In this document: in pieces, positions 20,407 to 43,344 of the stretch
Numbering within the stretch: position 1 is the stretch's first letter
Layout of the letters: the number at the start of each line of letters is the position of its first letter
Source of the DNA: Candidatus Latescibacterota bacterium
GTDB lineage: Bacteria; Latescibacterota; UBA2968; UBA8231
Assembly (NCBI GenBank): GCA_965219385.1
Contig: CBDCNM010000002.1
Coordinates: 1,296,936-1,360,935 of the forward strand
Direction: 5' to 3'
DNA: 64,000 nucleotides
Position numbers and translations under genes: made by a program
Notes under the pieces: model-generated
What the model saw: the letters and a program-made list of their open reading frames with translations, nothing else
Told to the model about the DNA's origin: nothing
The model's database searches: none

Positions 20407-20485
20407 TAACGTTATGCCGGTTTGCGAACCCGCGCAGCGGGTTGCCCGAAGGGCCGAATGGCCCGAAGCCGGGGGCACGATGTTA
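20407..20485 (-). repeat. attC-like site a (distal end)
   Basis: TAACGTT..GCGAACC..TGTTA, 79 bp. Confidence 0.88.
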
Positions 20486-20530
20486 TTGGATGTGCTAGCC
20501 GGGTTTGGATGCCACCAGGAAGCGCCGGTT

Positions 20531-21118
20531 TCATCCTGATGGCGGGAATATTCTGTAGACCAGCAACTCCAGGGTTGTTCCATCCGCCTTCTTCTGGGCC
20601 TCTCTCCCGAAGACTTCACCACCGAGAGCCTCCGGTATCCTTATGCTGGCTTGGTTGCGTCGATCAACTGGGTAGGTCAGGTATTTGTAAGCCAGATTAC
20701 TATCAGCCCACCGCTTTAAACCAACGATGGCTTCCTTGCCGTAACCATTTCCGTGCGCTCCCCTCTTGATCCATATTCCCAGTTCCGGCGTTTCGGGTCT
20801 CCCCTCTCCGTGAAGGCCGCAACAGCCAAGGAATTCTCCTGAATCACGTCGTGCAACGACTGCCTGATAGTTGTCTCCCGCCTTCATCCTCTCAACTGCG
20901 GCGTCGATGAAGGTGAATGTATCATCGATGATCTCACTTGGGCAGGGAGCCATGTACCGTGTGATTTCCGACGTAAACTCTCTGAATATGTCCTCGGCAT
21001 GTATGCGGGAGATTGAAGATAGTCTGAGTCTTTGGGTAGCTATCTCCAACGTCAGCCAGTCAATGTCCTGGCCCTGCTTTGCAGTGAATGTACTGGACTC
21101 GTTGCACGACATTGTCAT
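20531..21118 (-). CDS. Cassette: RimJ/RimL-type GNAT acetyltransferase
   Basis: TQRLRL, FLGCCGL, ELGIWI..HGNGYGKEA, N.ASIRIPEALG; start approximate. Confidence 0.85.
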   Translation of the reverse strand: MTMSCNESSTFTAKQGQDIDWLTLEIATQRLRLSSISRIHAEDIFREFTSEITRYMAPCPSEIIDDTFTFIDAAVERMKAGDNYQAVVARRDSGEFLGCCGLHGEGRPETPELGIWIKRGAHGNGYGKEAIVGLKRWADSNLAYKYLTYPVDRRNQASIRIPEALGGEVFGREAQKKADGTTLELLVYRIFPPSG

Positions 21119-21690
21119 TGCTGACTCCGAAATCCTCCAAATGGGCGCCCTGGGCTTCTTGACTGGCATGTCCAATAACGTCTTCCGGTTTGCGAACCCG
21201 GAGTGAAACGGAGAGTTGCCCGATAGGGCCAAGCAGCGTATGCCGCGCGGCGCAAAACCGCTGTGTTATGAGATGTGTGTCCCGAAATTCCCTCTATAGC
21301 GGAAACAGACGGAAATTTAAATCTGCTCTGTGCCTTGTTATTGGTTTCTTTCGAGAAGAGGCCGGCGCGTCTTAGAATGATTACAATCCCAATCCAGCCA
21401 ACTAACATGCATATTACTGCGAAGAGCAAAATTGAGAGTCGTATCGGACCCGGATCAGCAGCAAGAGTCGGAATGACCGGCCATAATCCTGGAAGCACTA
21501 GCAATCCGACGAATAGGGGGAGTAGGAGGATTTTGCTCTGCACCAGAACTACAATCCCAACTGAGATGCATATTGCTGCCGAGAGTATAATCAAGATCCC
21601 TGTCGGACTCAGATCTGCAGCAAAACCCAGCAAGCCAATCCCTACGTTTGACGCAAGCAATAAGACGAACAAAGAGACCTTACTCGGCAT
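21115..21690 (-). CDS. Cassette: hypothetical four-TM membrane protein (ORF reads through site b)
   Basis: Four hydrophobic segments; AGGAG upstream. Confidence 0.6.
   Translation of the reverse strand: MPSKVSLFVLLLASNVGIGLLGFAADLSPTGILIILSAAICISVGIVVLVQSKILLLPLFVGLLVLPGLWPVIPTLAADPGPIRLSILLFAVICMLVGWIGIVIILRRAGLFSKETNNKAQSRFKFPSVSAIEGISGHTSHNTAVLRRAAYAAWPYRATLRFTPGSQTGRRYWTCQSRSPGRPFGGFRSQQ
21176..21268 (-). repeat. attC-like site b
   Basis: TAACGTC-CGGTTTGCG..CGCAAAACCG-TGTTA, 93 bp. Confidence 0.88.
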
Positions 21691-21759
21691 GGGGATTCTC
21701 CTTAGTTGAGAGGTTCCGATTCCAAACGGAGTGGCTAGCTTTTTGCTTCACATGTCCTC

Positions 21760-21842
21760 TAACGTTTTCCGGTTTGCGAACCCCGAAGGGGTTTCCCGCA
21801 GGGCCAAGGCGCGTAGCGCCGTAGCGCAACACCGATGTGTTA
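21760..21842 (-). repeat. attC-like site c
   Basis: TAACGTT..GCGAACCCCGAAGGGG..TGTTA, 83 bp. Confidence 0.88.
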
Positions 21843-21877
21843 GCCGCCGGCCAGCGAACAGAACGTTATTCTTGTCT

Positions 21878-22277
21878 TTACCAACCGAAACTTTCAAAAA
21901 ACTGGCCTTTCTGATAGTTTTCGAGTGCCTGCCTGACATAAGGCACCATATTGGCGGGTAAATCGTGGATAGAATGCCAAGATAGGTCATCACATTTGTC
22001 TGGCTCGGCGTTCACGATGTCTCCGCTCCATCTGGAGACGGAAAGGAAGAATGACACCCGTTCATCCTCAGCCTTCCGGTGCATAACACCGACCACTTCG
22101 ATGTCCGAGGGCTGAATCTCAATACCTGCCTCCTCCTTCGCTTCCCTGATCGCCGCTGCCTTGACCTCCTCTTTGCCATCGATGTGCCCAGCAATCACGC
22201 TGTAGTTGCCATCCTCATATCCAGTATCGAAGCGTCTCAATAGCAGGATTTCATTGTTGTTGTTGGTTAGAAAAACA
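21878..22277 (-). pseudogene. Cassette: NUDIX hydrolase, 5' end truncated by ISL3
   Basis: Nudix box GHIDGKEEVKAAAIREAKEEAG, NAEPDKC; frame runs into the ISL3 IR. Confidence 0.85.
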
Positions 22278-23717
22278 GGCTCGTCAGTAGAATTCGTGGG
22301 TGAATTGTGGCTCGGGTAAATCGCCAAGCTGATGGAATGAAGCGATTTGGAGTGCCTTGAAGGTGCGGCATCCGAATGCTTTTCTCACGGTCAGATTCCA
22401 TTTCAGGTTCAAGCCCTCGACCATGGCGTTGTTGAACTGCTTTTTGGCCCTGAACCAATTGAGGATGAGCTCTCGATGACGGCGTAGCCTCTTGGCGATG
22501 TCTTTCATCGGTTCGATCTTGCTTCTCATCGTGCGGAAACACCAGCGGTTGAGGAATTTCTCAGCCCAGGCAGGGTAGGTGTAGTTCCAGAAGCGCTGGA
22601 AGTCCTCCTTGAGCAGGTAGGCTCTGACCGTCCGCAGGTTCATCTTCACTAGCTCGGACCGCTTCAAAGCCTGGGGGTCGCTGAGGTTCTCCTTGCGCTT
22701 CAGGAAGCACCAGCGGCTCTTGCTCAGGACGGGATCTTGGCCCTGTTCTTTGAGTCGGCGGGCCTCTTCGGCACGGACTTTGTCGAGGGCCTTGCTGAAG
22801 GGCTGCATGAGGTGAAAGCGGTCGAGAACGTGTACCGCCGCCGGCCGCCGCTGGTCAATGACGGTGAGGTAGGCTTTCCAGATATCAGAGCAGATGACGG
22901 CAATCGGGCCGAGGAAGCTCCTCGGCTCCTGCTCGCCGGCCGCTTCTTGCTTGCGCTGGTGCTCTTGCTCCAGTTCGGTAAAGCCGTCGTCCAGGGTCTT
23001 TATCGTCCGCTTTTCGCCCCTCCACAACAGGCGGCGGTGGTGAGTGTCGATCTGGTACAGCAAGGTCAGATAATGATGGCCTTTGCGATACTGGATTTCA
23101 TCCACGCCGAGGGCCGTGACCCGGTCGAGGCGGCGATGAGCGAGCCCCTATTCCACGACGTACTGGACGGAACGGTAGACTGGGTCCCAACGGGTCCGGA
23201 AGGAGCGCGCCCCCTCGATCCACGACCGCTTCTTGGCCCACGGTGCCAGGAAGCAGCGGTAGAGGTCGGTCAGGGGGTGCTTGCCCGTGCTCCAGGGGAC
23301 CTTCTCGACGACCACCCGGCCGCAGGCTTTGCAGGCCACCCGGCGCATGCGATACACCAGAAAGACCGGGAACCCCCAGAGCGGAACAAACTCGAACAGC
23401 CGTGCCTCGGTGGCCGTGTCATAGGTGGGGGACAACGGACCGCAGCCGCTGCACTCCGCCCTGGCGTTCTTTCGGGGCCTGAGGCTCACCATGATCCTGC
23501 CGTGTTCGTCAAAATGACCCCCCTCAAACACAAACCGCTTGAACTTCGTGCATCGGTTCAGTACTGTGATCAGGCGCATCATTCCCTCCAAAGTAGGTCG
23601 GGATCGGTATTGATGGACCGTCCCAACATACCGGGAATGATGCGCCGGTGCTATCCTCGGCCTCCTCTATGCCGTCGGCGAGCCGGCTCTTTCACCCACA
23701 GATTCTCCGGAGGAGCC
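22278..23717 (-). mobile_element. ISL3-family IS; transposase (22284-23591) broken by an in-frame TAG at 23148-23150
   Basis: 27-bp imperfect IRs starting GGCTC (22278-22304, 23691-23717; 22/27 match); GVDEI, CSDIW, LDRFH, EGLN motifs; no target duplication. Confidence 0.88.
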
Positions 23718-23792
23718 ATTATTTCTATTCGCAGGCTTGCAACAGTTCCAGAAGGTTGCGCCATACTCAGAACATTTCACAGGAGGAACTAA

Positions 23793-24038
<246 letters not shown>

Positions 24039-24093
24039 TGAAAGCTCGACAAGAGTAAGAGTTGATTGAATGAATTGGATTGGAGGAATAGGA

Positions 24094-24570
24094 ATGAAAC
24101 TACGACACCTGATGGGGATGTTAATGCTTTTGGCGATGACAGCCGCTCGCTCAGAACAGCAAGAAAACGCGACGGCACCAAAAACCGCCGCAACCGAGAC
24201 GGTGTACCTGAATGGCCGAATCTATACACAGGACAAAGATCTGCCTTGGGCCCAGTCAATCATCACGATAGGTGACAAAATCGTTTTTGTCGGCTCTACC
24301 CAGGATGCCTTGCAATACGCCGCCGGAGACAGCAGGCGCGTGGACTTGAAGGGGCAATTCGTGATACCAGGTATAATTGACGCACACACACCCCCCGGCT
24401 TGATTAGCATGTCGGGTGACCTGTCTGGGATAGATGCAGCCGCTGGAGAGAACGAAAAGCCTTCAAGACCGATAGGATGCCATCCAAGCCAAAGGAGGCG
24501 ACGCTAGCTTGGTTACAGCAGTACGCAGACGATCACCCGTTTGATCTCATGATCTTACAGGGGACCTGGA
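24094..24570 (+). pseudogene. N-terminal fragment of a YtcJ-like amidohydrolase
   Basis: Signal peptide, YLNGRIYT, IVFVGS, DLKGQFVIPGIIDAH; frameshifted and truncated. Confidence 0.7.
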
Positions 24571-24678
24571 AGGATTTCGGCGCGTTTCAGAGGTCAACCT
24601 GGTACTTCTGCCACCCGTCAGTCCTCCGTAGCAGCGCTACTGCGGAGGACTGACGCCCGAACATGCGCTATTACCTGA

Positions 24679-26928
<2,250 letters not shown>

Positions 26929-27198
26929 TCTCAGAATGTTGCGGTACGGGTCGTAGGCGCTGTAGAACGGCGCGTAGTAGTGGTCGTGCAGCGCCGTGCG
27001 GTTGTTGGTCCAGAACAGCTCGTCTTCGGGCAGGTTGAGCGCGTCCGTCAGGCTCATGGCGCCCAAGTAGCCGTAGCGGCGGCAGTACTCCTCGTGCATG
27101 GGGACGGCGAAGCGGTGCAGGTCGGCTAGGGCTTCGTCGTAAGTGATGGAGTAAACCCAGCGCTTGCCGTATTTCCATGGACAGATGCTCAGACTCAT
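26929..27198 (-). pseudogene. Fragment of a polysaccharide-deacetylase-like gene
   Basis: WKYGKRWVYSITYDE resembles a NodB-type N-terminal motif; short and running into katG. Confidence 0.4.
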
Positions 27199-27220
27199 GG
27201 CTGCTCATCTTTCATCTTAT

Positions 27221-27240
27221 AGAGCCTGGGCACGGTGTTA
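27221..27240 (-). repeat. Half attC-like site (right arm only)
   Basis: GCCTGGGCACGGTGTTA matches the right arms of sites g and l; left arm absent. Confidence 0.6.
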
Positions 27241-27304
27241 AGCGATTTCACGAGTACGCGAGTTGGTCCCGACCATGTCCTCCGACACGAGTTAGACGAA
27301 ATGC

Positions 27305-28099
27305 TCATGCCATCTCTGCCACCATCCACTGCATGGGCCGCCGCCGCATGACCCGTTTAAACGGGAGATTTCCGGGTTCAGCAAGGAAGCAGAGAATCTC
27401 ACCGGATGTGGAGGGCAGCATCATTGCCACATGGAGGCCGTCGCGCCAGGTGCACGGCCATTTCGGGGCGCCTATCACAACGAGGTCGCAGTTGGACTGT
27501 ACATGGCCATCGCAGATGAGCGGTTGCATCGTCGTGACAAACGAGATGTGTGATGGCCCGTCAGTGGTATCCTCGGCCAGACCGAACAGTTGGCGGACTC
27601 CTACCTGAACCGAGTGTCCCCGCCGGACATGCTCTTTCAGTTCCTCCAAATCGCCGTGTACGCGATTGCCATCGGCATCGTGTTCGTAGACCGTACGCCA
27701 GCGGTCGCAGATAAACCACCGATATATCCCGTACGGGTAGGCCTGGCTCTCATCCACGCGCACATCACGCCACATCCACTTCACGTGGCAGAAGGTTCCG
27801 GAATCGTCGTATTTGAAGATGCTGATGTATGGTTGCTGTATGGCTTGGCCGCGGTGTACATAGCTATGGTGGTGGCTCATGAGTCCTGCAAACGCGCCAC
27901 CCCCACCGGCATAAGTCTGCTGGAAATAAAGCGTTTCCTCGTACAGATCTGTGGTCATGTAAAGCCTGAGATCTGCGCCTCGGCGTACCGCTGCCGCCAA
28001 CTCGGACACCGCGCCATGGGATGAGGTCAGGTCCGTCTGCTGTTCAAGGGCAAGCGTCCAGTTGTGTCCCATTGTGCGTGTTTCCTTTCGCAGTGACAT
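27305..28099 (-). CDS. Probable cassette: hypothetical protein with two similar halves
   Basis: 264-aa ORF; GAVSELAAAVRRGADLRL and GDLEELKEHVRRGHSVQV are internally similar. Confidence 0.7.
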   Translation of the reverse strand: MSLRKETRTMGHNWTLALEQQTDLTSSHGAVSELAAAVRRGADLRLYMTTDLYEETLYFQQTYAGGGGAFAGLMSHHHSYVHRGQAIQQPYISIFKYDDSGTFCHVKWMWRDVRVDESQAYPYGIYRWFICDRWRTVYEHDADGNRVHGDLEELKEHVRRGHSVQVGVRQLFGLAEDTTDGPSHISFVTTMQPLICDGHVQSNCDLVVIGAPKWPCTWRDGLHVAMMLPSTSGEILCFLAEPGNLPFKRVMRRRPMQWMVAEMA

Positions 28100-28371
28100 G
28101 TCTAACTAATGAGTGGTGCATAGTCGCAAGCGCAACGAGCGGCCAGATCTAGCGAGGCGCTCACGCCGCCGGCTGTTCTTCGATGCCGTCGAGGATGATG
28201 TCGAGCTGGTCCTCGGGGTGGGTTTCGCGGCCTATAGGTTGATCTCTTTACGAGATGTATTTACGTTGATGAAACGGAGGTACCTCGAGTGTGTGTGCAT
28301 CCGGTCGACGAACCATTGGCGCGGGGCAGCTCGCACCGCGTGCTCCAGTCTCTCTGACTTCAGACACTGAA

Positions 28372-28519
28372 TTCTTCCAGTGCCGCAGCCAAACTCGAGG
28401 ACCGGTCCACCATACTCATTGGCTAGATCGAGGTAGAAGTCCACGTCCACCAGATCGTCTTTGACGCTGTATGCGGCGTCGTAATGCTTCGCTCCCGGAC
28501 TGTAGGAATCATCAATCAT
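28372..28519 (-). pseudogene. Cassette: truncated class I SAM methyltransferase
   Basis: DVDFYLDLA..GGPVLEFGCGTGRI then similarity is lost. Confidence 0.7.
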
Positions 28520-28561
28520 GGTTTGTTGTCCATCGTACTGTTAGAGTCAATCCATTTCAGG

Positions 28562-28652
28562 TAGGGTTCGCCGGTTTGCGAACCCCGAACTTGTCGAAGA
28601 GTTGCCGGAGGCTAAGCCGCCAAATGCGCCACAGAGTAACACCAACGTGTTA
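28562..28652 (-). repeat. attC-like site e (left core mutated to TAGG)
   Basis: CCGGTTTGCGAACCCCG..GTGTTA. Confidence 0.75.
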
Positions 28653-28662
28653 GGCATTGCGG

Positions 28663-29217: not shown

Positions 29218-29240
29218 GATTCAATTGACCGCGTTGCGCC

Positions 29241-29306
29241 TAACGTTCTGTGGGTTAATGAACTGGCGTAGCCGCCTGAAGGCGGCGCAGCATTAACCCG
29301 CTGTTA
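29241..29306 (-). repeat. attC-like site f (shortest, 66 bp)
   Basis: TAAC..GGGTTAATG..CATTAACCC..GTTA. Confidence 0.85.
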
Positions 29307-29335
29307 TCGGTCGTGGAAGCTCCGTGGCTGGTCGC

Positions 29336-29816: not shown

Positions 29817-29920
29817 CAGAGTCCTCCAAATCAGGTTTACAACAGACTGGTCGGTTTCGACCAACTTAGAGTAATATACGGCAGTTCCACACGAAAGTCT
29901 TCGTCAGATTCCATGACCGC

Positions 29921-29993
29921 TAACGTTCAGGGCCTCCGAACCGCGTAGCGGTTGCGCAAAGGGCGCAAGCCCGAAGCCGGGAGCACGGTGTTA
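29921..29993 (-). repeat. attC-like site g
   Basis: TAACGTT..CGAACCGCGTAGCGGTT..GTGTTA, 73 bp. Confidence 0.88.
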
Positions 29994-30013
29994 GCTGAAG
30001 TTGATCTGTCTAG

Positions 30014-30628: not shown

Positions 30629-30665
30629 ATCACATTATTCTCTGCATTCCTGATTCAATTTCAGC

Positions 30666-30744
30666 TAACGTTCTCCGGTGTGCGAACCGGCGTAGCCGGT
30701 TTAGGCGAAGGCCGTTTAGGCCGTAGCCGCACACCCACATGTTA
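30666..30744 (-). repeat. attC-like site h
   Basis: TAACGTT..GGTGTGCG..CGCACACC..TGTTA, 79 bp. Confidence 0.88.
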
Positions 30745-30891
30745 CAAGATGTGTAATCCTCATCGTGTTGGCCAGGAAGGCCAGCACGGTGACGGCGTCC
30801 ATTTCCTGAATATAGTGAAATCTCAAGAGGATATGCTCACAGACACGACCAAAGCCAGCAACCGAGCAGTTTCCTTACTGGGACTGCTTCT

Positions 30892-31649: not shown

Positions 31650-31716
31650 GATTCCTCGTGCACTAATTTCCAATTAGCGGCCAGGGATGGCTGCTTCTAT
31701 GGATTGCATTTTCTTG

Positions 31717-31793
31717 TAAAGTTTTCGCCGTGTCCGAACCGCGAAGCGGTTGCCGAAGGGCCGAATGGCCCGCAACTGGGCACGGACGTGTTA
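31717..31793 (-). repeat. attC-like site i (core TAAA)
   Basis: CCGTGTCCGAACCGCGAAGCGGTT..GGGCACGG..GTGTTA. Confidence 0.82.
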
Positions 31794-31822
31794 AATGAAG
31801 TTTGCCCCAAAATGCCGGTAGT

Positions 31823-32572: not shown

Positions 32573-32627
32573 AGAACTCCAGCGTCACGTTTCGAGAAGC
32601 GTCGGGCCCCAATAGGCAAATTTCGTT

Positions 32628-32709
32628 TAACGTTCTCAGCACCCACGAACCTGGCGAAGCCAGGTTGGGCGTAGGCCCGAAAGCCCCGGAGCCGTGGGTG
32701 CACGTGTTA
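32628..32709 (-). repeat. attC-like site j
   Basis: TAACGTT..GCACCCACG..CGTGGGTGC..GTGTTA, 82 bp. Confidence 0.88.
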
Positions 32710-32772
32710 GGCGCCGTGCTGTTCCCGTCACCCAGGAGGGAACAGAGGAGCGGACATCGGTATTCCTGTCTC

Positions 32773-33723
32773 CTACATGAGATAGCGAAGCGCATCCTTG
32801 GCCCGCTGCAACTTGGTTGTATCATCAACCAGACAAGCCAGCCTGTAGAAGCCATAGAGCGTTTTAATCCGGTGAGTAAGCCTTGCGCGATCCCTCCTCA
32901 GGGTGCCGGATTCCCAATAGACGGGGGTGCAGGGATCTTCTTCAGCCGGCTCTTCGGTCCCCAGTTCGTCCTCGACATTCGGTAGGGATCTCCACAGGCG
33001 AACATGACGATGGTGGGCCTCAAGTCCTTTCTGCGCCAGGTCAACGTAGCCACACTCAGACAGATCGATCAGCGAAGCGGCATGGTTGATAATGTGCCAC
33101 AATCCCCCGAATCCCTGTCTCCGTTCGGCAGCTGTCTCAAGGAGCTCATCCAACACTGCTTCGATCATGCCCTCCAGATTGGAATACGGTCGAAAATCCG
33201 GATGTTCCGGCAACGCGATCATGTCTCCGTCGATCCGACCTTTTTCCCTCCCGTAGTAACCGCTGCCAGCTGATGCTTGGTCAAAGCCCCCGATCAATCT
33301 GCATATGCCATCAATGATAGACGATGTTGCGTGCTGGGGGTACTCCTGGAGCGCCCGAATGGACAGAGAGGCGAAGATCACGTTGTGACCTGAGGAGCGT
33401 GTTCCTCCGATGTTCCTGGATAGGACCTGGGCGATGCGGTCAATCTGATCTACCTGCGTGTCTTCGTCTGGGTAGGGCACAAACAGGTCCGATGTTGTGA
33501 TGGATCCACCCTCGCCTGGGTCAAATGCCGACTCTCCCTTGAGGACACGATCCAGTTCCTTCTCTATACCTGCATGAACCTTCCTGTCTAGTTCACGGTG
33601 TTCCTCACTGAAGAGACAGCCAGCGACAAGGGTAGCGCCCAAATGTCCCGTCATGGTATCCACAAGGTGAGCTCGGCTTAGTCCCCACAGCCCCTTTTCC
33701 AGATACTCAGGTCTAACCGCCAT
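32773..33723 (-). CDS. Cassette: hypothetical His-motif protein
   Basis: 316-aa ORF with GGAGA RBS; GHLGA, SGHNVIF, WHIINHAA, THRIK. Confidence 0.75.
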   Translation of the reverse strand: MAVRPEYLEKGLWGLSRAHLVDTMTGHLGATLVAGCLFSEEHRELDRKVHAGIEKELDRVLKGESAFDPGEGGSITTSDLFVPYPDEDTQVDQIDRIAQVLSRNIGGTRSSGHNVIFASLSIRALQEYPQHATSSIIDGICRLIGGFDQASAGSGYYGREKGRIDGDMIALPEHPDFRPYSNLEGMIEAVLDELLETAAERRQGFGGLWHIINHAASLIDLSECGYVDLAQKGLEAHHRHVRLWRSLPNVEDELGTEEPAEEDPCTPVYWESGTLRRDRARLTHRIKTLYGFYRLACLVDDTTKLQRAKDALRYLM

Positions 33724-33817
33724 ATATCTTCTCCACGCCTTGACGGAGTTAGTCAGGCAACTCCCATATGGCTTTCCGTCGCACTGCGAACAACATGGCG
33801 CCTTGTACCTTCAATAA

Positions 33818-33995
33818 TGGGCTTTAAAGACTTGCCGTCATCTCGGACTAGTGGACAAATTAGACGTACTCTGGATGAGGCCGATGACGCCTGAAGGTAG
33901 CGATCTTGTAGGTTAGATGGGCCCCCCGCCTTCTTTGCCCATACCGAGGAGTATCTGAGCCCATTGAGGCTGTATCTACAAGGTCGGTAAGCAAG
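33818..33995 (+). ncRNA. Predicted IS110 bridge RNA (ends approximate)
   Basis: LTG ATGACGCCT 33884-33892, RTG GTTAG 33912-33916, LDG GAGTATCT 33949-33956, RDG TACAAG 33977-33982, in the expected order within stem-bounded loops. Confidence 0.8.
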
Positions 33996-34044
33996 GGTCC
34001 AAGGTCAGGGGACCAGAGTCTACAATATAACCCAAGGAGTAGTC

Positions 34045-35040
34045 ATGCACCAATCCCGTCCCGTCGGCATCGATGTGAGCGCCCGCACCTTGGAGGTAGC
34101 CCTGGCGGGCCCGAACCCAAGCCGAGCGAGCGCCACGTTTGACAACACCCCCGCTGGCCATCGTCGGTTGATCCAATGGATCACCAAACGCGGTCAATCG
34201 GCCCGGGTGGGCCTGGAAGCGACCGGGGTCTATAGCTTAGAGATAGCCTTAGCCCTGCATCGTCATCCCCGTACCGAGGGGATGGTGGTCAATCCTAAAG
34301 CCATCAAAAACTATGCCGGCGCTCGCCTACAGCGGGCCAAGACCGACCCGGTCGATGCGCAGGTCCTCCTGGATTTTGTCCAGCGTATGGACTTTGTCCC
34401 CTGGCAGCCGCCCACTCAGGCGGTACTGCAGTTGCAGGCGATCACCCGGCGCATGACCCAGTTGAAGGTCGAAGTCAACCGCGAAACCAATCGCTTACAC
34501 GCCGAGGGATATCGTGTCAGCTCCACCAACTTGATTGAGCGTGATATCCAGGTCCATATCCGCCACATGCAGCGCCGGATCCAGCGTTTGGAAGAAGAGG
34601 GTATGGCACTCGTCCTATCGGTGGTCGAGCTGAGTGAAAAATTTCACCATCTGCTCTCCATCCCGGGCATTGCCCAAGCTAGTGCACTGCGGCTGATCGC
34701 TGAGTTGGCCGTATTGCCGGCCGATATGAAAGCGCCCCAATGGGTAGCGCAGGCCGGGTTGGATCCGCGACCCTATGAATCGGGTAACTCCATCCATCCG
34801 CCGCGACGCATCACCAAAGCCGGTAATAAGTATCTGCGCGCCGCCTTATATATGCCCGCCCTGGTGGCCATTCGCCATCAACCCCAGGTCAAAGCCTTTT
34901 ATGACAAGCCCATCGCCGCCGGCAAAAAGCCGCTACAGGCCATTGTCGCCGTGATGCGAAAACTGGTGCATGCTATTTGGGGCGTGTGGACCTACAACCA
35001 GGATTTCGACGGACAGAAATTTTATAAAATGGCCGCATAA
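34045..35040 (+). CDS. IS110 recombinase/transposase
   Basis: DEDD residues in GIDVS, LEATG, KTDPVDA; ESG serine; GNKYLRAALY, AVMRKL. Confidence 0.95.
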   Translation: MHQSRPVGIDVSARTLEVALAGPNPSRASATFDNTPAGHRRLIQWITKRGQSARVGLEATGVYSLEIALALHRHPRTEGMVVNPKAIKNYAGARLQRAKTDPVDAQVLLDFVQRMDFVPWQPPTQAVLQLQAITRRMTQLKVEVNRETNRLHAEGYRVSSTNLIERDIQVHIRHMQRRIQRLEEEGMALVLSVVELSEKFHHLLSIPGIAQASALRLIAELAVLPADMKAPQWVAQAGLDPRPYESGNSIHPPRRITKAGNKYLRAALYMPALVAIRHQPQVKAFYDKPIAAGKKPLQAIVAVMRKLVHAIWGVWTYNQDFDGQKFYKMAA

Positions 35041-35065
35041 GACCCTTGACTTTTAAGAGAGTATC

Positions 35066-35141
35066 TAACGTCTCAGTGCCCCCCGAACCGCGCAGCGGTT
35101 GGGCGAAGGCCCTTGTGGCCTGAGCCGGGGGCACGGTGTTA
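35066..35141 (-). repeat. attC-like site l (IS110 target)
   Basis: TAACGTC..GTGCCCCC-CGAACCGCGCAGCGGTT..GGGGGCAC-GGTGTTA. Confidence 0.88.
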
Positions 35142-35179
35142 GACGAAGGGCATTCCCGAATATCGACCTACGCCTTGGC

Positions 35180-35578
35180 CTAAACGAAAACTGAGGGTGA
35201 AACGCCAAATCGCTTGGACAAAGCACGTATCTGCCGAACGTTCAACTCCCGCCTCCCACACAGAATCTCTGAAACCACTCCTTGTGAACCCACCTCCGGC
35301 AAATCCGTCTGCCTCAATTCATGCTCCTCCATGAGAAATCGAAGGGATTCCGCTCCCTCCGTCTTGGGCATGGGATGGTGTTGTTCTTCCCAAGCATGGA
35401 CAACGGCGCCCAGCGTATCGAGCAGAGAATAAAGTGGATGCTGCTCATCCGTGCCCACTTCATCAACCAAGCTGTTGAGGCGCTCCAAGGCCAAATCGTA
35501 TTCCTGCTCGTTCTGAATCTTGAGTAGGGCACTCACTTGCGTCCATGATCGCTGAAGCTGTGGCGTAATGACACTCAT
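35180..35578 (-). CDS. higA: Cassette: HigA antitoxin (HTH)
   Basis: LRFLMEEHEL.Q.DLPEVGSQGVVSEIL.G.RELN..QI..LS.RF. Confidence 0.9.
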   Translation of the reverse strand: MSVITPQLQRSWTQVSALLKIQNEQEYDLALERLNSLVDEVGTDEQHPLYSLLDTLGAVVHAWEEQHHPMPKTEGAESLRFLMEEHELRQTDLPEVGSQGVVSEILCGRRELNVRQIRALSKRFGVSPSVFV

Positions 35579-35862
35579 GTGGTCCATCCTCCACGGTCGT
35601 AGGCTTGATGTGTAAGCACATGACGGATGTATACTTTGCCCCGATTGAAGTGAATAGAGACAATCAGGCGGTACTTGTTGCCGGCGATGTTAAACACGAC
35701 GAATTCTCCGACTTTATCGGCCGATGGAAAAGTGTGGCGCAAGGCCGCGAAACTGCTAAACTGAGTCTGCTGCATGATTTTGAACCAGCGACTCAGTGCC
35801 TTCTTACTGTCGGGATGCTGCGTCCAAAACACCCGGAGGGCTTTCCGTGAGATGACGTGCAT
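35575..35862 (-). CDS. higB: Cassette: HigB toxin
   Basis: MHVISRKAL, TFPSADKVG, VFNIAGNKYRLI, VLTH..YD; ATGA overlap with higA. Confidence 0.92.
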   Translation of the reverse strand: MHVISRKALRVFWTQHPDSKKALSRWFKIMQQTQFSSFAALRHTFPSADKVGEFVVFNIAGNKYRLIVSIHFNRGKVYIRHVLTHQAYDRGGWTT

Positions 35863-35871
35863 ATAGACAAA

Positions 35872-35897
35872 ATATCGCAAATTGCGATATATCGCAA
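35872..35897. promoter_or_regulatory. Probable HigA operator (overlapping palindromes)
   Basis: ATATCGCAA-A-TTGCGATAT overlapping TTGCGATATATCGCAA, just upstream of higB. Confidence 0.7.
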
Positions 35898-35953
35898 CTC
35901 TCCTCTGCTCCGCTGCCCATTGACCCGACCGAACGCCCTTACTGCCTTTCGGC

Positions 35954-36045
35954 TAACGTTCTTGTGTTTACGAACCCGAGCGAATGCGAGGGGTTGCCCG
36001 GCAGGGCCAAGGAGCGAGGCGACGCAGCGCAACACCGTGCTGTTA
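35954..36045 (-). repeat. attC-like site m
   Basis: TAACGTT..CGAACCC..GCAACACCGTGCTGTTA, 92 bp. Confidence 0.85.
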
Positions 36046-36079
36046 TGGGCCGTGGCACGCAATGGCCTTCATTGAAGGT

Positions 36080-36313
36080 TCAGGAGGTGGTAGGCGAAAC
36101 GTCTCTAACGTGTAAGATCTCACCCGCCAAGGGAGGACGTATTGATGAATCTTCCAGGGTCAGAACCGCGATCGTGGTGCCCTGAGTATCCACGAACTCT
36201 ACCTCCGATGCCTCGTCGTCCGCGTATCTATGCACCACCGTGCCCACATCCCCAGCCACCAGACCGTGCTCTACGATAGACTCCTCAAGAACCACCAGAT
36301 CCAATTCAGTCAT
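36080..36313 (-). CDS. Cassette: DUF4926 family protein
   Basis: ELDLVVL..GL.AGDVGTVV...EVEFVD..G.TIAVLTL. Confidence 0.85.
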   Translation of the reverse strand: MTELDLVVLEESIVEHGLVAGDVGTVVHRYADDEASEVEFVDTQGTTIAVLTLEDSSIRPPLAGEILHVRDVSPTTS

Positions 36314-36327
36314 TTCATCCTCCTTGA

Positions 36328-36661
36328 TCAGGCTGGATAGGCTGTCACCAGACGAGGCCGAGCGGAGCCAGGTTCAACAATCCAGACCGTCCGTATCCGA
36401 ACACTCGACCCTGATGGGGTTTTCACACGACCATCCACAACATACTTGGTACCATGGTGTGTCTGCATAACTTCGAAGACCTGCTCATTGCGCGCGATGG
36501 GATGCTAAATCAGCTTCCAGAACAGAGGGATCCTCTTGTCGATACCCAACACCACGGAAGAATCTCGCCTTTGCTCGACCTACGGCATGTACATCGGAAA
36601 GCAGATATTGCTCGACTTTCTCGGTTGGTATCGCCGCATTTTTTCCGTTAGGCAACTTCAT
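36328..36661 (-). pseudogene. Cassette: DUF6883-like putative toxin, frameshifted near 36500
   Basis: MKLPN...K...YLL...H..G..KARFF, then GTKYVVDG..TPSG....RTVWI......PRLVTAYPA in another frame. Confidence 0.72.
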
Positions 36662-36688
36662 AGAATCCAATTCTTATACCATGGCACA

Positions 36689-36781
36689 TAACGTTATGTC
36701 GGTTTGCGAACCCCGAGCTTGTCGAGGGGTTGCCGCAGGCCAAGCCGCCCACAGGGCAGCGCAGCGCAAAACGATGTGTTA
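36689..36781 (-). repeat. attC-like site n
   Basis: TAACGTT..GGTTTGCGAACCCC..CGCAAAACGATGTGTTA, 93 bp. Confidence 0.88.
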
Positions 36782-36819
36782 TGTGCTGTGCCTTGCTCCC
36801 TGTGGGGGTGATATCAATC

Positions 36820-37611
36820 CTAGATAGCTATGCACGTTATGGTATCGTGTGCTCGTCCAGTACAGTCACAGTGCACATATTCAATGCCATCGATTACTAT
36901 TCGCCGATTCCTTGGATACCTCTGGATTAAATCACCGCCTCGGTAGAACCGTCCGTCATATCGCCGAAATAGTACAGTTCGCCCACCGGTCTCAACGAAC
37001 GCCTCTACCAATTCTCCGCCGTTCGGCTCTGAAAGATCTACATCCAATACTCGGAGACAGTGGTGCGTGTTGCCGCCGATTGTTACATCGTATACGCCTG
37101 CTCCAATGCCCTCCCCGGCGGCGGTCTTGTACGAACCGTCATGTTGACGCCTGTAGCGACCGTCATCGAAGAGTCTGCGACTTGACGGTTCGCCCCAGTC
37201 GTCTTCGAATCCGGCATCGGTGCTTGAGTAGAACACCTTCGTATTGTCCTCGTTCTTGATTACGCCAAGCCATCTTACCTCGTCATCGTCGATTACGCCG
37301 TACATATACCCGGGGTCGAATTCGACAGACCAGTGGCAACAATTAGACCATTGATCCAGCCGAATCTCAATGCAGTCCGAGTCATGGAGCCTCGCGCGGC
37401 CCGTAGCGGCCATTTCCGTAACAGCAACAAGCTCTCGCGTCAGCGAATCATAGGCTGCCCAAGTGGTCCTTTCGCCAAGTGTTGGGACGGCAAACCACCA
37501 CTGCAACTCCAGGCAATCAATCTCATCGATTCTCTCTGAGCTCTCGACGATTCTGATGTCCGGTCGCGTAAGCGGGAACGGATGAGTGGCGCTTCCATCG
37601 GTTGTGCACAT
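36820..37611 (-). CDS. Cassette: hypothetical protein
   Basis: ORF with GGAGG RBS, bounded by sites n and o. Confidence 0.7.
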   Translation of the reverse strand: MCTTDGSATHPFPLTRPDIRIVESSERIDEIDCLELQWWFAVPTLGERTTWAAYDSLTRELVAVTEMAATGRARLHDSDCIEIRLDQWSNCCHWSVEFDPGYMYGVIDDDEVRWLGVIKNEDNTKVFYSSTDAGFEDDWGEPSSRRLFDDGRYRRQHDGSYKTAAGEGIGAGVYDVTIGGNTHHCLRVLDVDLSEPNGGELVEAFVETGGRTVLFRRYDGRFYRGGDLIQRYPRNRRIVIDGIEYVHCDCTGRAHDTITCIAI

Positions 37612-37712
37612 CACTTCGCCTCCTCCAGTCCGGGCAGGACTACGAAAATCCAGTAATACCGTGTGAGTGACCCGAAATTGACCTGACAGGTAATAACCTA
37701 GGGCATGGCACA

Positions 37713-37790
37713 TAACGTTTTCCGGTTTGCGAACCCCGAAGGGGTTGCCCGATAGGGCCGTATGGCCCGTAGCCGGGCACGGGCGTGTTA
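37713..37790 (-). repeat. attC-like site o
   Basis: TAACGTTTTCCGGTTTGCGAACCCCGAAGGGGTT..GTGTTA; contains the stop codon of the upstream gene. Confidence 0.88.
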
Positions 37791-38672
37791 GCGGAAGTCG
37801 CCCCCCGGGTTGTCACTCATTCTTCTGATCTCCCTAAGATACTCTGTGACATTCCGATCAAGCTCAAGAGGATAGGCGCAGCCTAAATGTTCTCCAACCT
37901 TGGATGCCAGCCTCCCGAACACTTCGGCTGTTTTGAACATAGCGTTCCAGTTCTCTTCAAGGTCAGCCCCCGCGAATGTCGCCTCGATATCCGACCAAAG
38001 GTCGGATTCCACCTGTTTCTTGAACCATCTGCCAAAGGCACCCGGATTGGACTTCCAGCTGTTCTGCATACCAATGTACCAGGCGATCGCAGTTCTCAGA
38101 TAGTGATGATGTAGAGAGTCGTCAAGCATATACTTGGCAAAGAATAACTCGTCCCGGAATAGGTACTTGGCTACGTAAGTTATGTTCCACCAGAAGTGGT
38201 GAACAAGCTCCTCGTATTCCCCTTCAGTTGGCTGTTTTGTCAAATACTGAGTGTAGGTCGGCGATACTGCTCCTTCGGCAAGGCCATCCTTGTCGAGAAG
38301 GACTTGATAGCCCATGTCGTTCGTATAGCCTCCATGTTCTCTGCTATCCTCTTCCATGGCTTCCGACAACATGATGTGGAAATCGATCCTTGGGACGTCC
38401 TTGAATATCACAAGGCGCCAAACGTCGTTCTCGTCCCCAATAACAGGTTTATAGGGTTCGCGGACTAAGACTTCCCCAAATATCCTTAGCCACTCGTCCC
38501 CCTCCAGGAAAGGCTGCAGGTCTTCCACAAATAGTTCGATGTCGTAGTCAGACAACGTGTCAATAGGAACGCTGGGATTTGCACGAGTACTAGTAAGGAT
38601 TACTGCTCGAACGTTCTCGTTCCCCTTGGCCCACTCCGTCACTTCTTTCGCCATGTTCTTCGTGGTATTCAT
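37788..38672 (-). CDS. Cassette: aminoglycoside 6-adenylyltransferase (AadK/ANT(6)) family protein
   Basis: VRAVILTSTRAN..D.LSDYDIE, RIDF, VLLDKDG, FWW...YVAK.L.RDEL. Confidence 0.85.
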   Translation of the reverse strand: MNTTKNMAKEVTEWAKGNENVRAVILTSTRANPSVPIDTLSDYDIELFVEDLQPFLEGDEWLRIFGEVLVREPYKPVIGDENDVWRLVIFKDVPRIDFHIMLSEAMEEDSREHGGYTNDMGYQVLLDKDGLAEGAVSPTYTQYLTKQPTEGEYEELVHHFWWNITYVAKYLFRDELFFAKYMLDDSLHHHYLRTAIAWYIGMQNSWKSNPGAFGRWFKKQVESDLWSDIEATFAGADLEENWNAMFKTAEVFGRLASKVGEHLGCAYPLELDRNVTEYLREIRRMSDNPGGDFR

Positions 38673-38712
38673 CGAGTCCTATTAGGATTCAACAGCGTCC
38701 GATATCGAGCGA

Positions 38713-38780
38713 TTTCCGCTAACTGCTTTTAGCCGCCGTGCTCATTCTCTCATAAGACGCCATATGGTGAGGCGTTAGCG
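38713..38780 (-). other. Atypical internal junction (attI-like core or aberrant short attC)
   Basis: TAACTGCTT identical to the attI core; left flank matches the right flank of site o at 14/15. Confidence 0.6.
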
Positions 38781-38790
38781 TCAGGTTCAT

Positions 38791-39303
38791 TCAAAGGACC
38801 ATACCGTACCGGATCTCTCGCAGTTCAAAACCCTCTCGCTTTTCAGTCTTCGTTAAACCCTCGGTTTTGAATCCGAATTTCTCGTAGAAGGATCTGGCTC
38901 TTTGATTGGTTTCCAAAACCCAGACTTTTACGGAGCCAAAGCCATCTCTCTCCAGGGCTGTCAAAGCGTTTTCTATCAGTGTTCTGCCGATTCCGCGATT
39001 CCAGAAATCTTCCAATACGTAGATCGAATATACCTCTCCAGTCAGGAGTCTGTTTTCCTCTTCACCTCGGAGAGGACCAAAGCTCGAGAATCCAACGATT
39101 CTCACTTCATCTTCTGCTACCAGAACACTACGCATCTGATCCTTCAGAATTTGAGTCCACGCCAGCTCCCGTTTCGCAACCGACAGCCCTTCGAGATACG
39201 AATCAGGAATCTGTCCTCGATAAGTGGCCTGCCAGGAACGAACATGGACTTCAGCGATACCCCTCACATCATCGGAATGGGCACTTCTGAATATTCTGGA
39301 CAC
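38791..39303 (-). CDS. Cassette: GNAT acetyltransferase
   Basis: HVRSWQATY.G, GEVYSIYV, GIGRTL, WVLETNQRARSFYEKFGF. Confidence 0.92.
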   Translation of the reverse strand: MSRIFRSAHSDDVRGIAEVHVRSWQATYRGQIPDSYLEGLSVAKRELAWTQILKDQMRSVLVAEDEVRIVGFSSFGPLRGEEENRLLTGEVYSIYVLEDFWNRGIGRTLIENALTALERDGFGSVKVWVLETNQRARSFYEKFGFKTEGLTKTEKREGFELREIRYGMVL

Positions 39304-39360
39304 AAAAAGCTATCTCCTAAATCGGCCGGCGCCTTCTCTCGTGCTGACTTGCATGACCGA

Positions 39361-39454
39361 TAACGTTCATCCGTTACCGAACCCCCGGAGCGTAGCGAAG
39401 GGGGTTGCCCGCAGGGCCAAGGCGCGTATGCGCCGCAGCGGGAACGGGGTGTTA
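39361..39454 (-). repeat. attC-like site p
   Basis: TAACGTT..CCGTTACCGAACCCC..GGGAACGGGGTGTTA, 94 bp. Confidence 0.88.
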
Positions 39455-39531
39455 AAGGACGTGGGATACTATCTCCCCTCAAGGTGTATCTTGAAACCAA
39501 ATTCCTATAACTGTCCCAATTCATGCGCTTG

Positions 39532-40308
39532 TTAGCGCTGTTGCGTACATTCTGGTATATCGATCAGCAACATGCCTTCTTCTTTTAAAGGATATTCAAC
39601 CAGAATGTCACCTGATTTTGAGACAAATAAAGCACCACCGAAGTAACCGCCCATTTCGTCGTCTGTCAACTGATTGACCAACATCATATTGACGCCGGCC
39701 TCTCGCGCTCGCCCGGCATAAAGGTACTTTTCCTGTCTATGCCACATAGCCATATCGGCCACATCTTCATCAAAACTGCGAGCCATAGGAAACAACAACC
39801 AGTCTGGATTTAATGCTTTCACACGAGATAAGCAGGTATTATTGAATAGATCGCCACAAAGCAAAAAGGCAGCGGTTCCAATCGGTGTAGAGGCGATTGG
39901 CACCTCGTCTCCCTGGGCATAAATCGGAAAAGGACAAGGCCGATTATGCCAGTGATGCCAACACGGATCGATACGACGATATCGCATACGAATGACACCA
40001 TCAGGACCAATTAGAATAGCCGTGTCATAGAGGCGATCCTCATTTCGTTCAAAAAGCCCCGTTGCCAGCCATATTCGGCATCTGGCTGCAAGCTGGCAAA
40101 GTGCCTCTGAAGCAGCTCTGGGAATAGATTGACCAAGAGACAGATCATAATCGGGGTTCCCGGTGTTCACTAATCCTGTAATCGCTGCTTCGGAAAAAAC
40201 AACCATCTCTGCATTAACATTTGCGGCATCCTCAGTCATTTGCATCAAGCCGGAGAGAGTATCCTGCCGATTTAATTTTACTTGGGGGACACCAAGAGCC
40301 ACTTTCAC
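39532..40308 (-). CDS. Cassette: carbon-nitrogen hydrolase (nitrilase superfamily)
   Basis: VVFSEAAITG, LYDTAILIGPDG, YRR, LLCGD; catalytic Lys position appears to be Arg. Confidence 0.85.
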   Translation of the reverse strand: MKVALGVPQVKLNRQDTLSGLMQMTEDAANVNAEMVVFSEAAITGLVNTGNPDYDLSLGQSIPRAASEALCQLAARCRIWLATGLFERNEDRLYDTAILIGPDGVIRMRYRRIDPCWHHWHNRPCPFPIYAQGDEVPIASTPIGTAAFLLCGDLFNNTCLSRVKALNPDWLLFPMARSFDEDVADMAMWHRQEKYLYAGRAREAGVNMMLVNQLTDDEMGGYFGGALFVSKSGDILVEYPLKEEGMLLIDIPECTQQR

Positions 40309-40434
40309 GCTATATGGTTCCTCTTAAGCTTGAACAGCCCAAACTCATTATTAAACTGCGAAAATTCAGTATCTCTCTTTTAAATTTGGAGGCATACTGA
40401 ATAGATATCTGTCTCACCTTCATCCCATGTCCTG

Positions 40435-40511
40435 TAACGTTTCGCCGTGCTCGAACCGCGAAGCGGTTGGGCGAAGGGCCGTATGGCCCGTAGCCGGGCA
40501 CGGTCGTGTTA
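40435..40511 (-). repeat. attC-like site q
   Basis: TAACGTT..CCGTGCTCGAACCGCGAAGCGGTT..CGGGCACGG..GTGTTA. Confidence 0.88.
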
Positions 40512-40523
40512 AGAGAAGTGCGT

Positions 40524-41234
40524 TCAATCCAATCGTTCGAGGACGGGCTTTAGATCAAGCAAAGATCGGATAACAAGTCCCGAACTCACATCCACGTGAC
40601 CGATTCGGTCGATGAGCACGGAAATCATATTCGCTCGTCTCGCACCCATAATGTCCCACCTTGGATTATCTCCGACAAACAGGCATTCCTCTGGTTTGCA
40701 TCCAAAATGATCCAATGCCCGGCGAAACATAGGTTGGGCGGGCTTCCGCCACCCTACATCCGAACAAAAGATAGCCACCTCGCATCGCGTCGAAAGGCCA
40801 TGTCGCCGCAGTTCTTCAAACCAGGGCTCGCTCGGTGAACCCCAAGGACAGTTCGACAGGATTCCTACGCGGCAGCCATCCGCCAGATGCGCATCTAGAG
40901 CCGGAAGGGTGTCTTCATAGATCTTGGCAATAGAAAGGATTGGCGTGAGGAAGGCACGACAGATCGGCAGCCACTCTTCCTCCGAAACGCAAGGTGCGAC
41001 CGCAAAGATACGACCAAGCCTCTTGTGGAGTGGGCGAACGCGACTGTTTTTGGCTTCGTAGTTCTCAGTCGCGACACCGCGCTCGATCTCAGAATCCGAA
41101 GGCAAATCGTGTCCCGAACGCTCCAGTGCCTCTTTGGCTGCGTGAATTCCTGCCCGCAGCAAAGGAGGAAACTCTTCCCTGCGATAGTACTGGACAAGGG
41201 TGTCGCCAAGGTCAAACAGAAGAACTGGTCTCAA
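40524..41234 (-). CDS. Cassette: HAD-family hydrolase
   Basis: FDLGDTL, ILSN, GWRKP, FVGDNPRWDI.GA. Confidence 0.9.
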   Translation of the reverse strand: MRPVLLFDLGDTLVQYYRREEFPPLLRAGIHAAKEALERSGHDLPSDSEIERGVATENYEAKNSRVRPLHKRLGRIFAVAPCVSEEEWLPICRAFLTPILSIAKIYEDTLPALDAHLADGCRVGILSNCPWGSPSEPWFEELRRHGLSTRCEVAIFCSDVGWRKPAQPMFRRALDHFGCKPEECLFVGDNPRWDIMGARRANMISVLIDRIGHVDVSSGLVIRSLLDLKPVLERLD

Positions 41235-41271
41235 ACCTGAAACTCCTACTCGTCTCTTAAAGCATTTCGCT

Positions 41272-41356
41272 TAACGTCTCGCCGGTTTGCGAACCCGCGA
41301 AGCGGTTGCCGAAGGCCAAGGCGGCGTAGCCGCCGCAGCGCAACACCGTGCTGTTA
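41272..41356 (-). repeat. attC-like site r
   Basis: TAACGTC..CGGTTTGCGAACC..CGCAACACCG..TGTTA, 85 bp. Confidence 0.88.
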
Positions 41357-41453
41357 CACGATTGCGGCTCTGCAACGCACGAAATAAACACGCAAACGCC
41401 TATGATGGCTGGGCGATTGCCTTGGCAATCAAGAGTGTCGGTACAATTCTCTC

Positions 41454-42164
41454 TCAACACCTCTCCACCGATTTTGCTACAGAACCAAGCGGTTCAGAGA
41501 TCTCGGCAAGTTGGAATCCACTTCTGATCAAGGTATTGAAGTACGTTGAAAGCGTTCGGTGGTGGCTGCCAAGCGTGCCACACATCCCGATTCCATCGGA
41601 GTACCATTTGCCTTCAAGGCCATACCGTGAAACACGCAATGCCTTGAAATTTCCCGCTTCGTCCAACTCCTCCTGTGGATTCTCTGCATTGAACGGAGTG
41701 AAAAAGCACGGATGTAGAATTGTGAAGATGAACTTGCCATTGTCGAGAAGTATCCGACGGACATTGAACAATGTTGCCGTTAGGTCAGGGATATCCATGA
41801 GTGTCATGTTGCAAATAACAGCATCCATGCTGGCGTCGGACACCTGATTCAGCGATTGTGCATCGTCCAGGACATACGTGATGCCGTGGTCATCAGAATG
41901 CTCCTTTGCATGCCGCAACAGCATCTGTGAAATGTCCACACCTGTAACGAGAGCGCCCCGACTCGCTAGGATGCGAGACAGATACCCTTCACCGCATCCC
42001 AAGTCACATACACTGATTCCTTGGACATCGCCCAGCATAGTCAGCATGATTTCTACCGAGGGCTGGATACGCCTATCCCTATCCGGAACATTCCTATCCA
42101 GCCAGTTGAGATAGAAATCACCTGCCTTGTCATATTCAGATTCTGTCAACTCATCGATGCGCAT
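41454..42164 (-). CDS. Cassette: class I SAM methyltransferase
   Basis: DLGCGEGYLSR, GVDIS, LMDIPDL, HPCF, HRTLSTY. Confidence 0.9.
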   Translation of the reverse strand: MRIDELTESEYDKAGDFYLNWLDRNVPDRDRRIQPSVEIMLTMLGDVQGISVCDLGCGEGYLSRILASRGALVTGVDISQMLLRHAKEHSDDHGITYVLDDAQSLNQVSDASMDAVICNMTLMDIPDLTATLFNVRRILLDNGKFIFTILHPCFFTPFNAENPQEELDEAGNFKALRVSRYGLEGKWYSDGIGMCGTLGSHHRTLSTYFNTLIRSGFQLAEISEPLGSVAKSVERC

Positions 42165-42227
42165 AGTCTCACTCCCGTTGGGGCATGGGATCTAAGAATG
42201 ATGCAAACCCGTCACGCCGCTTTCGTG

Positions 42228-42310
42228 TAACGTTACTGCGGGCTGCGAACTTGCCGCAGGCAAGTTAGGTCGGAGGCCCGAAAGGGCCGGAGCCGTAGCC
42301 CGACGTGTTA
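42228..42310 (-). repeat. attC-like site s (first cassette)
   Basis: TAACGTT..CGGGCTGCG..CGTAGCCCG..GTGTTA, 83 bp. Confidence 0.88.
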
Positions 42311-42337
42311 CCTGCCGTTAGCCTCTCCGAGTGCGGA

Positions 42338-43319: not shown

Positions 43320-43344
43320 CTGTTTGCTTGGGAGAAAATGCGCC

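Follow-up and report, generated by a model that had tools for sequence, protein, structure and literature searches.

The stretch of DNA analyzed here, 64,000 nucleotides (nt) from Candidatus Latescibacterota bacterium (GCA_965219385.1, CBDCNM010000002.1:1,296,936-1,360,935; G000:C2:1296936-1360935 in our own numbering of the genome) and called the window below, carries an array of gene cassettes headed by an attI site and by a tyrosine recombinase that is related to the integron integrases (IntI) and from which the IntI-specific I2 insertion is missing. We think it probable that the 17 hairpins spaced along this array are its cassette boundary sites and that, folded on the bottom strand, they mimic the double-stranded attI and are likely to be read by their sequence rather than by extrahelical bases. 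The branching of their interiors and their bottom-strand GNA loops are real but are already known from ordinary attC sites; it is the core that differs.

The array, its attI, and its recombinase

Seventeen well-formed repeat sites occupy 20404-42313, with short minus-strand genes between them. Between the right flank of each site and the four bases that precede the next core rightward, 52 of 68 positions are complementary, a value reached by none of 100,000 permutations (mean, 29). Complementary flanks, together with cassette genes on the minus strand, indicate that the cassettes were joined at the AAC core and that the plus strand is the bottom strand; within the core, the cassette boundaries separate AA from C. 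A row of co-oriented single-gene cassettes with such flanks, and with its genes on the minus strand, is a trait of classical integrons that is present here. The sites follow two designs, type A with a three-way and type B with a four-way junction, and are listed with attI and the recombinase gene.

20404-20488, plus strand: site, hybrid, left half type B and right half type A, with the junction in a shared GGGCC
21173-21271, plus strand: site, type B, unpaired A at position 16, R' spacer of 7
21757-21845, plus strand: site, type B, three C-GNA-G hairpins, unpaired C at position 16, R' spacer of 7
28559-28655, plus strand: site, type B, core decayed (TAGG)
29238-29309, plus strand: site, short, without an extrahelical base, first branch decayed
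29918-29996, plus strand: site, type A, L stem weak
30663-30747, plus strand: site, type A
31714-31796, plus strand: site, type A, core TAAA
32625-32712, plus strand: site, type A
35063-35144, plus strand: site, type A, abutted on its left by an IS110 element
35951-36048, plus strand: site, type B, partly decayed
36686-36784, plus strand: site, type B
37710-37793, plus strand: site, hybrid, left half type B and right half type A
38717-38780, plus strand: degenerate cassette boundary, outside the 17, its left flank matching the R'' flank of 37710-37793
39358-39457, plus strand: site, type B, whose cassette (39361-40438) is repeated, at 93%, in another part of the genome
40432-40514, plus strand: site, type A
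41269-41359, plus strand: site, type B, unpaired C at position 16, R' spacer of 8
42225-42313, plus strand: site, type A, of the first cassette, with a right flank complementary to the attI flank at 4 of 4 bases
43097-43130, plus strand: attI, with core TAAC at 43100-43103, a CG-AAC motif whose G is at 43115 (12th base after the core), and an inverted repeat at 43112-43130
43345-44231, plus strand: tyrosine recombinase, IntI-related, without the I2 insertion, with a frameshift near 44097, before the catalytic tyrosine

A further candidate at 39508 was discarded, as it lies inside a duplicated cassette. Remnant or degenerate sites were seen at 27220-27240, 28103-28190, 36106, and 38717-38780; TAATGAG directly follows the core of the remnant at 28103, and the first nine bases of the degenerate site at 38720 are those of attI.

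The attI adjoins the integrase gene, and a cassette is inserted at its AAC core: among the window and four relatives, conservation begins at TAAC 43100, and the preceding bases differ with the first cassette. The site continues as a perfect inverted repeat whose halves are 5 nt apart (43112-43130 in the window; C1:488402 and C2:4422774 elsewhere in the genome). There are two further attI copies in the genome, orphans at C1:488388 and C2:4422802 that head small arrays without an adjoining recombinase gene. At the C1 copy, a TAAC also stands 12 bases out on the other side of the inverted repeat, which suggests a two-sided site. The repeat was considered as a LexA box but was not seen upstream of lexA in this genome. 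Cassette movement left its own traces: the 93% copy of the cassette at 39361-40438 ends exactly at two cores, the first of them at a second attI, and in contigs of three runs the cassette whose start is near 32582 is linked to attI (32582 to 43100), the contig joints at attI having sides of less than 30 letters. Many other joints link look-alike sites and were left unused, and a joint from 40434 to 43100, considered as between-strain shuffling, is explained by the cassette copy at the second attI of the same genome.

The recombinase gene is divergent from the array, and its product matches Pfam PF00589 and PF13495. Its best match among solved structures is VchIntIA (PDB 2a3v), of which some 42 residues are absent, query residues 187 to 206 spanning VchIntIA residues 178 to 239; alignment to IntI1 opened gaps of 31 and 10 residues that cover the I2 region and the hairpin following it. 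The distance between the lysine and the histidine is 64 to 67 residues in 67 of 69 non-IntI rows, against 105 to 106 in 15 of 15 IntI. The enzyme scores below the IntI cut-off (TIGR02249) and far below those of both XerC and XerD, and no canonical IntI over the family cut-off was found in this genome, which is 94% complete; the assumption in the initial annotation that IntI acts on these sites is therefore not borne out. Two other recombinases of the genome lie outside the group in a tree. A search of plasmids with the window enzyme placed rhizobial recombinases on top, and a single-sequence structure model of the enzyme of one relative (L001) was too poor for use (predicted local distance difference test score, 45.7). 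A short tandem duplication upstream of the gene (43290-43322) is absent from the four relatives.

The R-K-H-R-H-Y set is complete in L001, whereas the window copy is frameshifted ahead of its tyrosine, and the gap-free passage of contigs from three studies' runs (X1, X3, and X4) across position 44097 indicates that the break is real. Intact relatives exist (L001 and L003), as does a second, intact gene without I2 in the same genome, at C1:888232, with co-oriented cassettes and the same type of site. With its own enzyme broken, the window array is probably either frozen or dependent on this paralogue acting in trans.

Core geometry and branched interiors of the sites

The layout that had been described for these sites holds, as do the stems and hairpins quoted with it, all of which are present in the sequence. 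TAACGT opens 15 of the 17 (the exceptions, at the core, are TAGG at 28562 and TAAA at 31717), TGTTA closes all 17, and GAAC occurs in every one, after 13 nt in one site, 14 in eight, and 15 in eight. R'' and R' boxes with AAC and GTT, a classical attC trait, are thus present (TAAC in 15/17 and GTTA in 17/17), and the first pair is G.T throughout (17/17), that G being usual also in attC sites (PMC2727003, in the part available). The register of the core is nevertheless not the standard one. A hand-written grammar of the published layout, with 5-nt and 5- to 6-nt spacers, an L box of 7 base pairs (bp), and an extra base at position 16, fitted none of the 17 window sites and all 13 class 1 controls. 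With the register left free, 13 window sites paired well, all of them with an R' spacer of 7 to 9, compared with 5 to 6 in 13/13 controls; eight of these well-paired sites lack an extra base, and five have an A or C at position 16. The second extrahelical T, at position 23 or 24, was found in 5/17 sites, where it falls within the junction linker, and in 13/13 controls. Good fits in close relatives (19/27) and in loci of Chloroflexota, Bacillota, and Bacteroidota (27/30) also have an R' spacer of 7 to 9, none of the latter with an extra base.

The link to attI lies in what the fold does to spacing. The attI layout is TAAC, ten bases, CG, and then AAC or AAT; in 44 loci, which were our own choice among 77 and from which the motif was itself read, it stands at a distance of 12 in 22 and of 13 in 3, with none on the opposite (control) strands. 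It lies upstream in Latescibacterota and downstream in Bacillota, whose attI often run on as CGAACTTCG. In the folded sites the attI-type G is found 14 to 16 nt along the left arm, yet its paired column is the 12th in 22 of the 25 sites parsed from other phyla and the 12th or 13th in 26 of 27 sites of close relatives. AAC begins the first hairpin in all 17 window sites and in 25 of 27 related ones.

Two to three hairpins are predicted in the interiors of 16/17 sites. Loops of the d(GNA) type are stable, and perfect C-GNA-G hairpins with stems of at least 3 bp number 20 on the plus strand and 0 on the minus strand of the 17 sites, whereas 1,000 dinucleotide shuffles gave 0.9 on average and never more than 4. 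At least one occurs in 15/17 sites and at least two in only 3/17, the remaining branches closing with loops of 4 to 7 nt; the initial annotation was right about the number of hairpins and about the strand on which GNA is read, and it overstated how many of the hairpins in each interior are of the GNA kind. The compensation that it had noticed in the inner stem was confirmed, with changes on both sides in 8/11 pairs of type A and 5/11 of type B and a covariation score reached by 0/500 shuffles in each; the two alignments, with 17 and 18 sites taken from the window and from relatives, derived their structure from one member, which biases the slide controls toward the structure as drawn. Multiway junctions folded on the bottom strand are thus supported for the cassette sites, and the standard model with unconserved branches is not what was found, since its fit was 0/17 and the branches are conserved and covary.

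What did not survive is the contrast that had been drawn between these branched sites and a simple attC rod. The class 1 controls, 13 attC sites from eight plasmid regions chosen just downstream of cassette genes, carry C-GNA-G hairpins in 9/13 sites, 12 for the bottom strand and 0 for the top, and the variable, sometimes branched terminal structure with purine-rich bottom-strand loops that is a classical attC trait is present here too. Branched ends and a bottom-strand GAA loop have been described for ordinary attC sites (the parts available of PMC2727003 and PMC5027507), and the available part of 10.1101/2024.04.09.588808 mentions that apical mini-hairpins play a role when attC sites begin to fold. 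With 11 hairpins in 30 sites of other phyla, GNA branches are lineage specific within this system; what its members have in common is the core geometry and the first branch. Free minimum-free-energy folding was not used for geometry, because it closed the R box in some sites only and its parameters give GNA loops no bonus.

Two sites marked "a" and "o" had been singled out as hybrids with mismatched arms; there are indeed two hybrids, at 20407 and 37713, each with its halves joined inside a common GGGCC, and neither fits well in any register. The letters have no certain mapping to them. Some six further hybrids were seen by eye elsewhere in the genome, with junctions at differing interior points. 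Homology-driven deletion between neighboring sites would be their simplest cause, and they are predicted to be inactive. In at least 10 dispersed sites of the genome, the core is interrupted exactly between its AA and its C, and left usable, by a 13- or 27-nt piece that starts TGAGGCGG and ends CCAA and whose termini form a weak inverted repeat (C1:891530 minus, C1:890040 minus, C1:1326280 plus, C2:762530 minus, C2:2450633 minus, C2:3378351 plus, C2:261822 minus, and others); the piece may be a miniature IS1111-type scar, to judge from its resemblance to one, or alternatively it may be a mini-cassette.

Proposed fold and its alternatives

The closest relatives of the recombinase (77 to 88%) are found in Candidatus Latescibacterota genomes, and attI and an array adjoin an enzyme without I2 in four close relatives and in other phyla, including nine Bacillota loci with arrays. 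Of 77 related loci, 16 have at least two sites on one strand. A quick tree built from 86 proteins placed the 15 IntI in a single group (100). In one relative (L004:12185-14400), the recombinase gene is flanked on either side by sites that all share one strand.

We propose the following fold. After the R box and the G.T wobble, 2 to 4 extra unpaired bases would stand on the R' arm; the stem would then bring CG to about 12 bp from the core, and the first hairpin (AAC...GTT) is predicted to start without an unpaired base. Tyrosine recombinases bind two arms of 9 to 13 bp around an overlap of 6 to 8 bp (PMC2095811, in the part available). If the first hairpin stacks on the stem, the second monomer of the enzyme would meet a continuous CG-AAC arm, as in attI; counted from the core, this arm would take up approximately positions 6 to 16, formed by the L stem and the first pairs of the first hairpin, and the remaining one or two hairpins would exit where the opposite strand is interrupted. 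The C-GNA-G loops are stable on the bottom strand alone and would favor its folding; together with the spacer bulge, they may also set strand and direction. The bulge would also put a bend in the site and prevent the second strand exchange, so that, as in integrons, replication would have to resolve the junction. Both the strand used and the stacking are inferred.

Several observations weigh against our interpretation. In the window, the partner position is spread over 11 to 14; in the genome at large, paired column 12 or 13 is occupied in only 26 of 37 sites (several of them misparsed or hybrid), and 5 of 30 sites from other phyla, four of them from one Bacteroidota locus, could not be parsed and have no GA anchor. 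Unpaired A or C is retained at position 16 in 5/17 window sites, some of which in this respect resemble variant attC. A flexible score for the new geometry gave 80 hits compared with 6 in shuffles but also passed 10 of 13 class 1 sites and does not discriminate. The predicted energy of the bottom-strand fold is the lower one in only 12/17 sites, by a mean of 1.3 kcal/mol. The window integrase is frameshifted in the runs examined, the attI count has the circularity given above, and the 13 array-bearing rows without I2 fall, in the quick tree, within a weakly supported group of 45 rows (87, unstarred). Finally, 61/77 related loci are without an array of at least two sites (23/77 loci are shorter than 10 kilobases), and members of the protein family without arrays indicate that the family is not all integron.

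The strongest competitor, which we nonetheless regard as unlikely, accepts the same system without I2 and treats the branches as filler that aids folding, the enzyme reading the R box and the 12-bp stem while the first hairpin and its AAC lie outside the binding arm. Deletion of the branched interior of the Vibrio cholerae repeat barely changed its recombination (PMC2727003, in the part available), a result that speaks for this alternative and against the fold that we propose; the GNA bias common to class 1 attC sites also favors it, as do some Bacillota sites in which the stem continues as a plain rod and the variation, in other phyla, of the three bases after CG (ACG in 9, AAG in 8, and AAC in 2 of 25). 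Against it stands the first hairpin itself, which has at least 6 bp and is flush with the stem in 12/17 window sites, 22/27 sites of relatives, and 21/25 sites of other phyla, far above the 1.0, 1.4, and 3.0 expected by chance, and the AAC, which is kept throughout the window and in nearly all related sites and is the same as that of the cognate attI.

That recombination is an ordinary double-stranded event through the TAAC and CGAAC arms, with hairpins that serve the cassette RNA (UNCG-type loops, in processing or termination), seems to us very improbable. Both arms are indeed conserved in sequence, as in Xer-type sites, and eight C-UNCG-G RNA hairpins can be drawn on the top strand, compared with 20 triloop hairpins of the bottom strand; yet the arms are a variable 14 to 16 nt apart in the duplex compared with 12 in attI, a spacing that only folding restores, the L stem covaries across the whole site, and more than half of the hairpins are unable to form a C-G-closed UNCG loop. 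Least probable of all is an interpretation in which a canonical IntI, acting in trans or since lost, recombines the sites as variant attC and the short recombinase is a bystander: a match to the IntI family in 9 of 63 same-family genomes, the unpaired base at position 16, the broken local enzyme, and the incomplete assembly would fit it, but this genome has no match above the IntI cut-off, attI and array adjoin the enzyme without I2 in the four relatives and in other phyla, and the sites of a same-family genome with canonical IntI are bulge bearing and have 0 GNA hairpins in 8 sites. That array (L102:3281-14757, genome G149) has sites of approximately 120 nt, with bulged bases mostly one position nearer the core and C rather than G.

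Beyond the window, the attI-mimicking fold that we favor leads to a broader and more tentative proposition, which we put slightly short of an even chance: that a second, widespread class of integron exists, Bacillota included, in which the enzyme never gained I2 and recombines folded single-stranded sites imitating the double-stranded attI, a bulge resetting the spacing and a stacked branch completing the CG-AAC arm.

Contents of the array and comparison with known systems

The remaining features of the array are as follows.

20531-43030, minus strand: cassette genes for GNAT acetyltransferases, NUDIX, GrpB, methyltransferases, and a HigB toxin-antitoxin
20531-43030, minus strand: further cassette genes for streptomycin adenylyltransferase family, CN hydrolase, HAD hydrolase, and unknown proteins
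22284-26928, no strand assigned: noncassette interruption made up of an ISL3 transposase and of a gene of the catalase-peroxidase type, part of which (293 bp) is duplicated
34045-35040, plus strand: IS110 family transposase, inserted beside the site at 35063

The HigB cassette lies at 35180-35862 (minus strand) and that of the streptomycin adenylyltransferase family at 37788-38672 (minus strand); with the latter in the array, such platforms may matter for resistance surveillance. The ISL3 element has further copies elsewhere in the genome. The IS110 element (33947-35065) is single copy, abuts the R' core of the site at 35063, and has identical 8 bases at its two ends; it is a candidate RNA-guided element targeting cassette sites. 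No Rfam family for cassette sites was matched in the window, the only match being to a transfer-messenger RNA, whose gene is at 9245-9602 (minus strand). A 15-nt tandem repeat lies within a gene at 12287-12346.

The I2 insertion has been treated as the definition or the enabling part of the integron integrases (10.1101/2022.02.06.479319; PMC8138268, in the part available), and its origin has been posed as a chicken-and-egg problem with attC (PMC4792948, in the part available). The available parts of published surveys report no complete integron in Firmicutes (PMC4889954) and none found by IntegronFinder in the taxa of PMC6199540 and PMC11523902. Our literature searches, with supplements and most subscription papers outside their scope, found no paper on cassette arrays without I2 and none naming GNA triloops as such in attC. 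A cassette system without I2, together with a rule that matches its folded sites to attI, makes the question of the origin of I2 testable by a conjugation assay. If our interpretation is correct, tools based on IntI and the standard attC miss a class of gene capture platform. On the broader proposition put forward above, this class would be a living model of a stage that preceded the evolution of I2 and of the extrahelical bases.

The system shares with classical integrons (of the IntI1/attCaadA7 type, and VchIntIA with its repeats) the integrase, the attI, the array of single-gene cassettes, the AAC/GTT core with its crossover signature and the G after AAC, and the branched interiors with bottom-strand GNA loops, and the nearest solved relative of its enzyme is the classical 2a3v. 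It differs from them in the absence of I2, in sites that do not fit the standard L-box register, in the longer R' spacer (7 to 9 compared with 5 to 6), in having no G at position 16, in the rarity of the T at position 23 or 24 (5/17 compared with 13/13), and in a CG-AAC sequence motif that the folded site shares with attI. The insertion is incompletely conserved in an "integron-like" subgroup of tyrosine recombinases (PMC8138268), where it is called essential, and the part of that source available gives no cassette arrays or sites for the members without it. A precedent for reading the folded site as a mimic of attI is provided, by analogy, by the attP of CTX phage and XerCD, where a folded single strand mimics double-stranded DNA without extrahelical bases and is used by enzymes without I2 (PMC4792948); in contrast to that phage, the element described here encodes its own single recombinase and carries a cassette array with an integron-type core.

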